Shown: in pieces, positions 36,343 to 64,000 of the stretch | How positions within the stretch are numbered: the first letter of the stretch is position 1 | How the letters are laid out: every line of letters begins with the position of its first letter | NCBI GenBank assembly: GCA_964016885.1 | Contig: OZ024754.1 | Location: forward strand, 29,512,001-29,576,000 | DNA length: 64,000 bases | From: Eledone cirrhosa | Lineage: Eukaryota | Reading direction: 5' to 3' | Notes under the pieces: model-generated | Databases searched by the model: none | What the model was told of the DNA's origin: nothing | What the model saw: the letters and a program-made list of their open reading frames with translations, nothing else | Program-made: the position numbers and the translations under genes

Positions 36343-37623
36343 ACATACGTAAAAATAATGTAAACATCACAAACACAGCCATTAACACATACATATACAC
36401 ATACATACGTACACACTCACACACATAAAAAATCACCAATACACACCTGCGTGTACACACACACACACACACACACACACACACACACACACACACACAC
36501 ACACACACACACACACACACACACACACACACATTCAACACAAAAGTGATGATACACACACACACACCCAAATCGGACCCCCTCACATAAATAGAAATTA
36601 GAGAAAAAGCCCCCCGAATACGCACACACACAAAACAAAACTATAACCTCACAGACATGCACACACAGACCAGTGTACACACTTCACTTTATAAGACTCT
36701 GGAACGGATAGACTGAAGCCACACACACACATACACACACACACACACATACACACACACACACACACACACACACACACACACACACACACACACACAC
36801 ACACACACACACACACACACACACACACACACACACACACACACACACACACACACACAACCACACCGATACAATGTAATTACCCAGCCTCCCTAGGCCG
36901 GACTTTCACTAGAATGTTAGTCTACGACTCCATTTATACCATAAACATGGTTTTGTCTTCGCGTGTATTTGTTATCCACGGTCCACATAACGACGTATTA
37001 TCTTCGCTTTTTTCCGTTCATTGCCAGGGAACGTCTTCACGAACCAAAGTGTCGTCTTCCTTCGGTTGCAACGTTTTTCGAAATATTTACTTCTGCGTAC
37101 ACAGATTGATTTTTTATTTTCAGAAGATCCCGTTAAGGGTGGAAGCAGCGTTTCCTTGCTTAAACTTTTATTTTGATATATACTAGCAGAATGGCCTGGC
37201 GTTGCTCGGGATTTGCTTTAGGGTTCTTATATATTTGTTATATATTTATCCTTATTGAGCCTCGTGAAATAAATACGTTTGTTTATATTTTGTGTATGCA
37301 AAAATATATGTACACGAATATATAATTATATATATATATATATATATAAATTGAAACAAAATGAAAACGAAATTTCATTTCTCACTCTTAGTATGGCACT
37401 TACTACTACATATATGTATGTACGTATACATGCATACTTACATTTAAGTAAGTGCCATACTAAGAGTGAGAAATGAAATTTCGTTTTCATTTTGTTTCAA
37501 TTTATCGTTTTCGGTATGCCTGACCGATTTAACTCACTCAATATGCAAATTAGGCTGCTCAGCCGTTAATTTCCATAAGGAAAGTATATACTTTCGAACG
37601 TTCAACTATCTGGCAGATGGGTA

Positions 37624-37667
37624 AACGGTGCTGATGATAGCTAACAAGCTTGAAACTAGTACATCGT
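37624..37667 (+). ncRNA. Type I hammerhead ribozyme (family A)
   Basis: ACGGTG-CTGATGA-TAGCT-AACA-AGCTT-GAAA-CTAG-TA-CATCGT. Confidence 0.8.
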
Positions 37668-38099
37668 CCCTGTGTCAGTGTTGAACAAAAAGGTGACGTG
37701 GTTGCCTTAACACCGTATGGCATAAATTCAGGCTGTTCAGTTTGTTTACAAACGAACAAAGCGACGTTATAATAAGCGCCGCTAAACTGATACGTGCATA
37801 TATGTATGTGTACCTGTATGCATATGTATATATATATGTATATATATATATATATATATGTGCATGCTACTGTACGTCTGTATACATATATGTATGTACG
37901 TATACATGCATACTTACGTTTAAGTAAGTGCCATACTAAGAGTGAGAAATGAAATTTCGTTTTCATTTTGTTTCAATTTATCGTTTTCGGTATGCCTGAC
38001 CGATTTAACTCACTCAATATGCAAATTAGGCTGCTCAGCCGTTAATTTTCATAAGGAAAGTATATACTTTCGAACGTTCAACTATCTGGCAGATGGGTA

Positions 38100-38144
38100 A
38101 ACGGTGCTGATGATAGCTAATAAGCTTGAAACTAGTACATCGTT
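38100..38144 (+). ncRNA. Type I hammerhead ribozyme (family A)
   Basis: AACGGTG-CTGATGA-TAGCT-AATA-AGCTT-GAAA-CTAG-TA-CATCGTT. Confidence 0.8.
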
Positions 38145-38595
38145 CCTGTGTCAGTGTTGAACAAAAAGGTGACGTGGTTGCCTTAACACCGTATGGCATA
38201 AATTCAGGCTGTTCAATTTGTTTACAAACGGACAAAGCGACGTTATAATAAGCGCCGCTAAACTGATACGTGCATATATGTATGTGTACCTGTATGCATA
38301 TGTATATATATATGTATATATATATATATATATATATATATATATATATATATATATGCATGCTACTGTACGTCTGTATACATATATGTATGTACGTATA
38401 CATGCATACGTACATTTAAGTAAGTGCCATACTAAGAGTGAGAAATGAAATTTCGTTTTCATTTTGTTTCAATTTATCGTTTTCGGTATGCCTGACCGAT
38501 TTAACTCACTCAATATGCAAATTAGGCTGCTCAGCCGTTAATTTTCATAAGGAAAGTATATACTTTCGAACGTTCAACTATCTCGCAGATGGGTA

Positions 38596-38640
38596 AACGG
38601 TGCTGATGATAGCTAACAAGCTTGAAACTAGTACATCGTT
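38596..38640 (+). ncRNA. Type I hammerhead ribozyme (family A)
   Basis: Same fold; CTGATGA at 38603. Confidence 0.8.
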
Positions 38641-60788: not shown

Positions 60789-60833
60789 AATATTGCTGAT
60801 GAGTTGTAACAACAACGAAACTAGTCCAATATT
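60789..60833 (+). ncRNA. Type I hammerhead ribozyme (family B), GUC site
   Basis: AATATTG-CTGATGA-GTTGT-AACA-ACAAC-GAAA-CTAG-TC-CAATATT. Confidence 0.92.
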
Positions 60834-61254
60834 CCTTGTCTGGCTTTCTGGAGAATAGAGGAAAGGTGTTTCCTCAAAAACCAGTATGACTCTAAAAACC
60901 GGTTTGTCTGTGTGTTTACATACAGAATAGCTGGATACTCACAGTAAAGTAACCAGTGAAAGACTTGGTACATCTACATATGTATACGTGTGTGTATTCA
61001 TATGCATACTAGTATTTCAGTATACATATGTGGATGTACATTTTTAACTTAATTGTTTAAGCGTCAGTCATACAAAAGTGAGTTACAAACGAAACGAAAT
61101 TTAATTTCGTTTCGTTATTTGTTTTTATCGTCTCCTTTGAACCGGTACGTACTCACACTCTATGCAAATTAGTCTGCCCACTACTAATTTTCATAGAAAA
61201 AGCATATAACGATATGTGCTTTTACGATTCTCCAGAAAGGCCGGTAGATAGGTA

Positions 61255-61299
61255 AATATTGCTGATGAGTTGTAACAACAACGAAACTAGTTCAATATT
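61255..61299 (+). ncRNA. Type I hammerhead ribozyme (family B), GUU site
   Basis: Same fold, with GAAA-CTAG-TT-CAATATT. Confidence 0.88.
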
Positions 61300-62609
61300 C
61301 CTTGTCTGGCTTTCTGGAGAATAGAGGAAAGGTGTTTCCTCAAAAACCAGTATGACTCTAAAAACCGGTTTGTCTGTGTGTTTACATACAGAATAGCTGG
61401 ATACTCACAGTAAAGTAACCAGTGAAAGACTTGGTACATCTACATATGTATACGTGTGTGTATTCATATGCATACTAGTATTTCAGTATACATATGTGGA
61501 TGTACATTTTTAACTTAATAATATATAATATAATATATAATATAATATATAATATAATATATAATATAATATATAATATAATATATAATATAATATATAA
61601 TATAATATATAATATAATATATAATATAATATATAATATAATATATAATATAATATATAATATAATATATAATATAATATATAATATAATATATAATATA
61701 ATATATAATATAATATATAATATAATATATAATATAATATATAATATAATATATAATATAATATATAATATAATATATAATATAATATATAATATAATAT
61801 ATAATATAATATATAATATAATATATAATATACTTTTGGCACAAGGCCAGCAATTTTCCAGTGTATTACTGGTACTTTATTTTATCGACCCCGTAAGGAT
61901 GAAAGGCAAAGTTAACCTCGGCGGGATTTGAACTCAGATATAATATAATATAATATAAAAATATAATCTTACTACAATTAAGGCTAACATTAAACTGAAA
62001 CACACACTTTGGTATTCATTGTCGATAGACGAGACTGAATAAATTATTTGCTAATGTTGAATACGCCATTGGAATGAGAACAGTCTAAGAAGTAAATTCA
62101 TGCATTCAAATCCACTGTGTAGTTAGTTACTAATTCAGTTAATTGCCATTTTTTCTACATCATCTAAAACGTCCATAAATTCTAATAATTGTAATATCCA
62201 TAAATGGCCGATAAACATCTGTGTTACTTTTGTAATAGTAACGTAATTGTTGGTAATCAAATAAATATACTATTAACCATCATTGAACGGAGAATGTGCT
62301 AGGGAAAATAATTCAAACTTAATAAAAAAAAAAAGTCAAGATAGAAATTTTATCCACAGATTTTGTGAAATCCATGGAAAAAATCAATAGTCTTAACTCA
62401 GAATATAATTGAGGTTAAATACTCATCCTTCAATTTGGAAAAACTACAAATGCTCTTTATAGTCTTAAAAAGACTATTTCACGAAACTTTTCAGTGGGGT
62501 TAGTCACGTTTGTAGTCGTTCATCAGTAGAGCCCAAACACGATAACCAAAATCACTGCTAAAATATGCCAGAAAGGGAATATATATATATTTATATATAT
62601 ATATATTTA

Positions 62610-64000
62610 GCTGACTCGATATGCAAATTAGGCTGCTCAGCCGTTAATTTTCATAAGGAAAGTATATACTTTCGAACGTTCAACTATCTGGCAGATGGGT
62701 AAACGGTGCTGATGATAGCTAACAAGCTTGAAACTAGTACATCGTTCCTCTGTCAGTGTTGAACAAAAAGGTGACGTGGTTGCCTTAACACCGTATGGCA
62801 TAAATTCAGGCTGTTCGCTTTGTTGACAAACAAACGAACAAAGCGGCCGGCGTTATAATAAACGTCGGCTAAACTGATGCGTGCATATATGTATGTGTAC
62901 CTGTATGCATATGTGTATATGTGTATATATATATATATATATATATATGTATATATATATGCGTGCTACTGTACGTCTGTATACATATATGTTTGTACGT
63001 ATACATACATACTTACATTTAAGTAAGTGCCATACTAAGAGTGAGAAATGAAATTTCGTTTTCATTTTTTTCAACTTATCGTTTTCGGTATGCCTGACCG
63101 ATTTAACTTACTCAATATACAAATTAGGCTGCTCAGCCGTTAATTTTCATAAGGAAAGTATATACTTTCGAACGTTCAACTATCTGGCAGATGGGTAAAC
63201 GGTGCTGATGATAGCTAACAAGCTTGAAACTAGTACATCGTTCCTGTGTCAGTGTTGAACAAAAAGGTGACGTGGTTGCCTTAACACCGTATGGCATAAA
63301 TTCAGGCTGTTCGCTTTGTTGACAAACAAACGAACAAAGCGGCCGGCGTTATAATAAACGTCGGCTAAACTGATGCGTGCATATATGTATGTGTACCTGT
63401 ATGCATATGTGTATATGTGTATATATATATATATATATATATATATATATATATATATATATATATATATATATATGCGTGCTACTGTACGTCTGTATAC
63501 ATATATGTATGTACGTATACATACATACTTACATTTAAGTAAGTGCCATACTAAGAGTGAGAAATGAAATTTCGTTTTCATTTTTTTCAACTTATCGTTT
63601 TCGGTATGCCTGACCGATTTAACTCACTGAATATGCAAATTAGGCTGCTCAGCCGTTAATTTTCATAAGGAAAGTATATACTTTCGAACGTTCAACTATC
63701 TGGCAGATGGGTAAACGGTGCTGATGATAGCTAACAAGCTTTAAACTAGTACATCGTTCCTGCGTCAGTGTTGAACAAAAAGGTGACGTGGTTGCCTTAA
63801 CACCGTATGGCATAAATTCAGGCTGTTCGCTTTGTTGACAAACAAACGAACAAAGCGGCCGGCGTTATAATAAACGTCGGCTAAACTGATGCGTGCATAT
63901 ATGCATGTGTACCTGTATGCATATGTGTATATGTGTATATATATATATATATATATATGTATATATATATGCGTGCTACTGTACGTCTGTATACATATAT
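62610..64000 (+). mobile_element. Retrozyme-like tandem array, family A (at least 3 units, periods 496 and 516 bp; runs off the window)
   Basis: CTGATGA cores at 62709, 63205 and 63721; the third has GAAA changed to TAAA. Confidence 0.85.

Follow-up and report, generated by a model that had tools for sequence, protein, structure and literature searches.

Two homologous families of hammerhead-bearing tandem repeats in Eledone cirrhosa share the insertion anatomy of Penelope-like elements

An important question about the retrozymes of animals, short non-coding repeats with a hammerhead ribozyme, is how they are transcribed and which enzyme moves them, since both points are still proposals in the literature. 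A stretch of 64,000 nucleotides of Eledone cirrhosa (C14:29512001-29576000, hereafter the window), from a (TA)n-rich host genome of 3.0 Gb, raises this question directly. A preliminary description of its sequence recognized two related families of repeat units, here called A and B, each with a type I hammerhead, and read them as a retrozyme-like system. Our analysis suggests that they are likely two homologous families of retrozymes of the kind without long terminal repeats (non-LTR), which would carry their own promoter of the small nuclear RNA (snRNA) type, cleave themselves, and be copied in trans by a Penelope-like element (PLE).

Nine complete motifs had been counted in the window, and nine type I hammerheads are indeed found where they were placed, with CTGATGA at 37631, 38107, 38603, 62709, 63205, and 63721 in family A and at 43738, 60796, and 61262 in family B. 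The core, however, is intact in eight of them: at 63721, TAAA replaces GAAA, which turns the catalytic G12 into T at 63742, and this motif is also the exception to the rule that GAAACTAGT follows CTGATGA (8 of 9). The motifs of the first A array span 37619-37671 (H17 is A, at 37661), 38095-38147, and 38591-38643, and those of family B span 43726-43778 (H17 is C, at 43768), 60784-60836 (C at 60826), and 61250-61302 (U at 61292), all on the forward strand. The last two thus differ at H17 between neighboring units. Helices I and II, the AAYA loop, and the ACTAGT palindrome agree with the preliminary description, which also placed the predicted cleavage correctly, after 43768 and 60826. Its statement that the helices differ yet stay paired holds as well, save in family A, where helix II has a U.U mismatch at its base. 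Beyond a two-base bulge, helix I continues with three further pairs and then a long outer stem, and helix III of family A is 2 bp long. Rfam Hammerhead_HH9 matches the three B copies with E values of 3e-4 (43738), 5e-7 (60796), and 3e-6 (61262), below its gathering score, and the A copies are not among the best 150 of 284 Rfam matches. Matches to Rfam miRNA families were rejected as artefacts of hairpins and microsatellites.

The motif is not a product of chance, as the pattern CTGATGA-N14-GAAACTAGT has 23,560 exact matches in the genome and the reversed pattern has none. Multiplied by unit length, these roughly 23,500 motifs give an estimate of about 11 Mb for the family. In 12 aligned motifs, 94% of the cells that should pair do so, compared with 36-52% in slid controls, and two-sided changes occur in 7 of 17 pairs; the motifs are kin, so this covariation represents about three lineages and not 12 events. 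Across the same 12, no change is seen in the core, in helix III, or in most of loop II, and between families A and B, helices I and II covary while these other parts stay fixed. This combination argues for selection on the ribozyme. In 58 merged stretches of the genome, 94 of the 95 intact A motifs have A at H17, while those of B have U in 142 of 155 and C in the remaining 13. Core-mutant motifs are rare (2 of 252), in a search whose pattern favors intact flanks. The repeats of the window are thus units that contain a predicted self-cleaving RNA motif.

These units also have the other properties expected of retrozymes. Families A and B are, as had been proposed, related: they are colinear homologs with about 320 nt aligned and BLAST blocks of 70-78%, and the changes between their helices are compensatory. 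The proposed unit length of ~470-520 bp applies with a small adjustment, since B units are 466-469 bp and A units 476-516 bp in the window, the latter varying through an internal TA run. The units had been said to lack any open reading frame (ORF). This is correct for B, which has no ATG frame of at least 50 codons, but A has six (54-135 codons), five of which cross the TA run, and no ORF for a reverse transcriptase (RT) or a GIY-YIG endonuclease is present in the units. GC content is 0.32-0.35 in the unit-bearing kilobases, i.e., below 45%, and the unit RNA is predicted to pair strongly with itself (z of -10.9 for B and -8.1 for A, reached by 0 of 100 shuffles). Arrays contain from 1 to 31 units, and short arrays are scattered over many chromosomes. 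With one hammerhead per unit, tandem arrangement, little coding capacity, low GC, self-pairing, and dispersed young copies, the retrozyme reading is supported. An older, A-related subfamily, C, was seen at seven loci and has CAGCT in helix II and U at H17.

The way in which these arrays sit in the genome carries the argument for how they arrived there. The tandem arrays first described are tandem, but not plainly so, since three of the four in the window have an inverted arm. In the first A array, a short inverted arm (37346-37406, reverse strand) has what we call the "long" end next to (TA)n, and the direct arm (37407-38887, forward) has about three units spaced 476 and 496 bp apart and a "short" end at (TA)n. 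In the first B array (B1), which has a single hammerhead, the inverted arm (43281-43503, reverse) has the short end at (TA)n, and the direct arm (43507-44069, forward) has about 1.2 units and the long end at (TA)n. In the second B array (B2), the inverted arm (60383-60709, reverse) has the long end and starts within helix II, so that it holds half of a tenth hammerhead; the direct arm (60708-61519, forward) has two hammerheads at a spacing of 466 bp and its short end in an AT-only 12-mer repeat. The second A array (62605-64000, forward), with the motifs at 62709, 63205, and 63721, is one-armed, and its short end lies about 30 nt past the window. Around the first A array lies an older element, whose inverted repeats (108 nt, 92%) are at 37067-37173 and 38939-39046.

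The long and short ends are fixed positions in the unit. In unit coordinates, the long end is at 496 in A and 466 in B, the short end is at 432-441 in A and 391-397 in B, and the two are therefore 55-75 nt apart. Array ends almost always abut TA runs. Among 31 complete two-armed arrays called by script in the 58 stretches, a long end is combined with a short one in 22, the same end never occurs twice, and 9 have an end that is not resolved, in A partly because the script cut units at the TA run inside them. Of the 18 such arrays in family B, 14 combine a long and a short end, and the other 4 have one end off the fixed sites. The loci typed are the best BLAST hits plus the first pattern hits on C1 and lean toward young copies. 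Two TA loose ends, at 61059 and 61128, are present in public contigs that possibly come from the source sample.

In contrast to these fixed sites, the 5' ends of B are scattered, with no pile-up at either the cleavage site or the predicted transcription start (1 of 51 each), which indicates that the RNA copied was not a linear monomer released by cleavage. The corresponding list for A was set aside, as the script had split units at the TA run. Arms and ends together are the "tail" signature of PLEs, namely partial tandem units, an arm that is inverted and truncated, and a tail on one side. This layout is described for PLEs in PMC8557442, and in vitro their tail was shown to span the interval that separates two start sites of the RT (PMC11167929). 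Mobilization by a PLE, which the preliminary description had inferred without noting the inverted arms, is supported by this anatomy.

If the units are copied in trans, an additional question is what transcribes them. Apart from the ribozyme, the part of the unit that A and B conserve best is a block with TATGCAAATTAG, which lies 88 nt ahead of CUGA in A and 100 nt in B. The difference is due to 12 extra nucleotides before CUGA in B, while the offsets of the motif, a TATA-like box, and a Y|AG step are the same in both families. In the host, type 3 promoters of RNA polymerase III (Pol III) have TATG(C/G)(A/T)AAT(T/G)AG at -76 to -78 and TATA at -30 in all five cases studied, which are three distinct U6, one U6atac, and one RNase MRP. 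This set leaves out near-identical tandem copies of U6, one U6 with an insertion in its promoter, and seven low-scoring U6atac copies without the upstream block that are probably pseudogenes. The exact 12-mer TATGCAAATTAG is a word of a host U6 promoter and is matched exactly in A, B, and C, and the Y|AG step lies 72 nt past it in A, B1, B2, and C. Subfamily C also keeps the TATA box. Among 578 background segments, 1 scores as high as the retrozymes do against the promoter matrix, and among 1000 shuffles per family, none does.

In the window, the block lies at 37542-37590 in the first A unit (TATGCAAATTAG at 37542-37553, TATA-like box at 37585-37590), at 43637-43686 in B1, where TATGCAAATTAG is again accompanied by a TATA-like box, and at 61161-61210 in the second unit of B2, all on the forward strand. 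Other A units carry it 88 nt before CUGA as well, in mutated form ahead of 63205, and the first B2 unit (60796) has lost the word to 5' truncation. Past the predicted start, the units are free of T4 for about 365 nt in A and 270 nt in B, followed by T4/T5 runs near the fixed ends. We conclude from these matches that the block is probably a working promoter, a view that we hold with some reserve. A promoter of the snRNA type for RNA polymerase II (Pol II), as in newt satellite 2, was rejected as a sequence match, because the word is absent from all 8 of the representative U1/U2 upstream regions, which have other elements instead. Those elements are AATTA at about -90, TCAGT at about -56, and, at about -30, a TATA-like box rich in A and T. 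A B1 motif sits within one of the U1 loci.

These features can be combined into a possible mechanism. Transcription, driven by TATGCAAATTAG and the TATA block, would start about 72 nt past the word, near 37615, 43710, and 61234 in the window and 16-28 nt ahead of CUGA. If the polymerase reads on into the following unit and the hammerheads then cut, the product would be an RNA of unit length with the promoter inside it, something that a monomer running from start to end could not carry. Cleavage would probably occur in dimers, as for axolotl motifs (PMC7229834), and the unit RNA would then probably circularize, as in mussel and axolotl. A PLE protein would nick both strands of (TA)n, prime at two fixed sites within the unit, one for each strand and 55-75 nt from each other, and run through one or more units to leave head-to-head arms with random 5' ends. 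The two fixed ends and the arms are direct observations, and this enzymology is our reading of them. We lean slightly toward a circular template. A more specific version, in which the element captured the host's U6-type promoter, which lies outside its transcript and is inherited solely through read-through, cleavage, and the circle, while an unrelated, currently active PLE primes on that circle at two fixed sites from both strands of (TA)n and rolls out the two arms, is speculative and, in our view, rather doubtful. If true, hammerhead plus circle would be a solution to the problem of propagating an external promoter, and the helper would read RNA shape and not sequence.

Some of the long arrays also record later events. 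Variants are shared at periods of about 2, 3-4, and 7 units in long arrays, which in part carry later local DNA duplications. An example is a 31-unit B array at C1:5738093-5752746, whose two-arm ends are intact and whose variants are shared at a period of about 7 units. Array periodicity was tried as a test between a circular and a linear template and did not separate them. Unit-length contigs, found in two of four sequencing runs of unrecorded kind (depths 4.5 and 9.7; one of them "goes back" 465 nt), were not used as evidence of circles because a collapsed repeat in trace DNA would look alike.

A number of observations weigh against the mechanism proposed here. U17, the majority in B (142 of 155), is expected to weaken hammerhead cleavage, and so are the U.U mismatch and 2-bp helix III of A. 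Both a U.U of this kind, in axolotl, and weak activity of monomers are described in PMC7229834, and for Xenopus retrozymes, only one of nine dimers cleaved in vitro (bioRxiv 10.64898/2026.07.22.740005). With the PLE called PAc, uncleaved RNA was the main template in vitro (PMC11167929), so that linear multimers would fit as well as circles. The units of many arrays are not identical, with a within-arm mean of 4.2 differences. On the side of the promoter, the matrix was built from five sites and was made after the match had been noticed, the distance from word to TATA is 42-43 nt in the retrozymes versus 46-48 nt in the host (4-5 bp closer), and insect snRNA promoters hold this spacing tightly (PMC1761439). 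In the predicted folds of both units, the word is base-paired with TAATTTTCATA as one strand of an RNA hairpin, and the T4/T5 runs of the units would oppose read-through by Pol III. As for the helper, the best candidate described below has ends 108 nt apart compared with the 55-75 nt of the unit tail, its sequence has no match in the units (best E 0.37), and its own terminal repeat is likewise without homology to them.

An alternative is that the units are non-autonomous PLEs copied from uncleaved linear read-through RNA of donor arrays, with a hammerhead that is slow or vestigial and circles that are irrelevant. The mixed units of many arrays, the U17 of most B copies, and the eight Xenopus dimers left uncleaved would all be natural on that account, and hammerhead mutants of PAc did not affect insertion in vitro (PMC11167929). 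Against it stand the signs of selection on the ribozyme, that is, an invariant core, helix III, and loop II combined with covarying helices, and the rarity of core mutants, given the bias of the pattern toward intact flanks. In addition, units are identical across the arms of the youngest two-armed arrays in 6 of 6 pairs, and in 6 of 10 in another, and the mean is 2.3 differences between the arms of one array, compared with a median of 8 and a minimum of 2 between arrays. Identity across arms fits a single template that is reread, and a homogeneous linear donor array fits it equally. We regard the linear account as the less likely one, even if it deserves serious attention, and continue to prefer self-cleavage followed by copying of the unit RNA.

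It could also be proposed that the units are read through from flanking host promoters and that the block ahead of the ribozyme serves as an RNA hairpin or as an octamer site of a generic kind. The pairing with TAATTTTCATA and the short TATA spacing agree with this, as does ATGCAAAT, the common POU octamer. However, the 5' strand of the hairpin is fixed in A, B, and C while the partner strand changes in C, the exact 12-mer is a host U6 promoter word, and the offsets of motif, TATA, and Y|AG are alike in A and B despite the 12 extra nucleotides of B. A hairpin or octamer is in our view the less likely explanation of the block, and an internal promoter remains our preferred one.

Which PLE might provide the enzyme? 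An endonuclease fragment in the window, at 3299-3508, led to a young PLE family in which 12 of the best 150 hits have a 781-codon frame, 99.2-99.9% identical. This intact PLE (at C3:316595001-316605000, with the frame at C3:316600475-316602820, and elsewhere) targets (TA)n and has a long and a short end in all 12 insertions with both ends visible. Its protein has a C-terminal endonuclease after a Cys-rich linker, and its Atlas neighbors carry HTH_animal and GIY-YIG. Pfam and PDB sequence searches with the protein returned nothing useful, and its class thus rests on motifs read by eye, the Atlas neighbors, and anatomy; by those motifs, it appears to be Neptune-like. It lacks the promoter word. 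Judged by age, target, and footprint, it is the best candidate helper, an assignment that we make tentatively and rate at somewhat less than an even chance. A close relative is found in the window at 2742-4461, a two-armed, 5'-truncated PLE in (TA)n with the endonuclease end and 3' untranslated region, its short end at 2744 and its long end at 4461. In its untranslated region are the half cores CTGAAGA and GAAAC-ATAT-GTC, and helix I is not obvious.

Other candidates were less suitable. An old Neptune-like family, of which the window contains an endonuclease fragment at 48381-48926 (reverse strand), is very abundant, with 36,114 candidates and 80-94% identity in the 150 scored, and by eye, its 3' end is unrelated to the unit tails. 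The published octopus Naiads also prefer (TA)n, and their ends are, again by eye, unlike the tails. A helper might also have shared the ACTAGT helix and had a shorter helix II; a search for such motifs gave 65 matches, most of them A, B, or C copies with deletions, and was abandoned. PLE coding matches occur in 11 of the 58 retrozyme stretches, with mixed orientation and distance, which argues that the units are not the pseudo-LTRs (pLTRs) of that PLE family; the pLTR comparison covered the intact family, the old Neptune-like family, and the published octopus Naiads. Units restricted to the termini of coding PLEs, the outcome that the preliminary description had set against its own reading, were looked for in these families and not found. 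That the units are satellite DNA spread by unequal exchange or extrachromosomal circles, or orphan pLTRs of a coding PLE, is very improbable: the shared variants of long arrays do point to local DNA duplication, and 24 of 57 Xenopus retrozyme families match known transposable elements, nearly all at PLE termini (bioRxiv 10.64898/2026.07.22.740005), but short arrays dispersed over many chromosomes, a pair of fixed 3' ends, 5' ends at random positions, and a single type of end on each arm are unlike a satellite, a satellite origin being largely refuted for dispersal, and homology to the pLTR is lacking for the intact PLE and, by eye, for the Neptune-like family and Naiads, in line with the mixed placement of PLE coding matches.

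The window contains several other repeats. A non-LTR retrotransposon at 10190-13615 and 6995-9049, among (AAT)n, has an open frame of 1141 codons (RVT_1) and a restriction-like endonuclease end and is Dong/R4-like. At 44435-46377, nested inverted repeats (836 nt, 97%) have CTGATGA at 46201 (reverse) and 46266 (forward), followed by a long hairpin, and are possibly another hammerhead-bearing family of the PLE type. CTGATGA with GAAA nearby occurs in still other repeats at 55943, 62526, 40160, 19388, and 27875 (all reverse) and at 17291 (forward). Fragments of Mariner-like DDE transposases are present at 50287-50640 and 57448-58041 (reverse), the second of which is DDE_3.

Compared with known systems, the class to which these repeats belong has already been described, and the families appear to be new with respect to the literature searched, in which we found no description of them; Dfam, Repbase, and two supplements were outside the scope of that search, and a prior listing there is possible. 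The text and small supplement of a paper on Octopus vulgaris repeats do not contain the word "ribozyme". The metazoan non-LTR retrozymes of PMC7229834 are short, non-coding, low-GC, self-folding tandems with a type I hammerhead, as are the units here, and the U.U of family A corresponds to axolotl HHR_Amex2 and the palindromic helix III to HHR_Amex1. Units here are longer (466-516 nt versus 170-400 nt) and fall inside the 51-972 nt of the 2026 preprint (bioRxiv 10.64898/2026.07.22.740005). Circles were demonstrated in PMC7229834 and are putative here, and the main text of that paper does not use the words "inverted", "microsatellite", or "cephalopod", whereas the insertions described here are two-armed, in (TA)n, and have two fixed ends.

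A link to PLEs is not a new idea, since PLEs were proposed as helpers in 2020 (PMC7229834) and argued for in the 2026 vertebrate survey, which considers animal retrozymes to be non-autonomous PLE derivatives, the same reading as ours. That survey rests on co-occurrence and pLTR homology in Xenopus and includes no mollusc, and insertion ends and promoters are undiscussed in its available portions, while the link here is the insertion footprint, with no homology to the PLE families compared. With PLEs (PMC8557442, PMC11167929), the units share partial tandems, an inverted 5'-truncated arm, a tail at one end, (TA)n, and two RT starts, and non-autonomous head-to-tail PLEs are known from MRC1 of Chlamydomonas. 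The units differ in having no PLE ORF, a tail of 55-75 nt versus 30-40 nt, and a canonical hammerhead with a full helix II versus the minimal one of PLEs. Hammerhead repeats with internal promoters have precedents in newt satellite 2 (snRNA-type, Pol II) and the schistosome satellite (Pol III), both as cited in PMC2220036. Unlike in these, the word found here matches host U6, U6atac, and MRP and not U1/U2, with TATA 4-5 bp nearer. With RT start sites located to within a few bases, a target, a predicted transcription start, a promoter word, and an intact PLE, the question can be tested directly, as an in vitro PLE assay exists (PMC11167929). To the known systems, this locus adds evidence at the level of single insertions, mapped RT start sites, a promoter word matched to its host, and a candidate enzyme.

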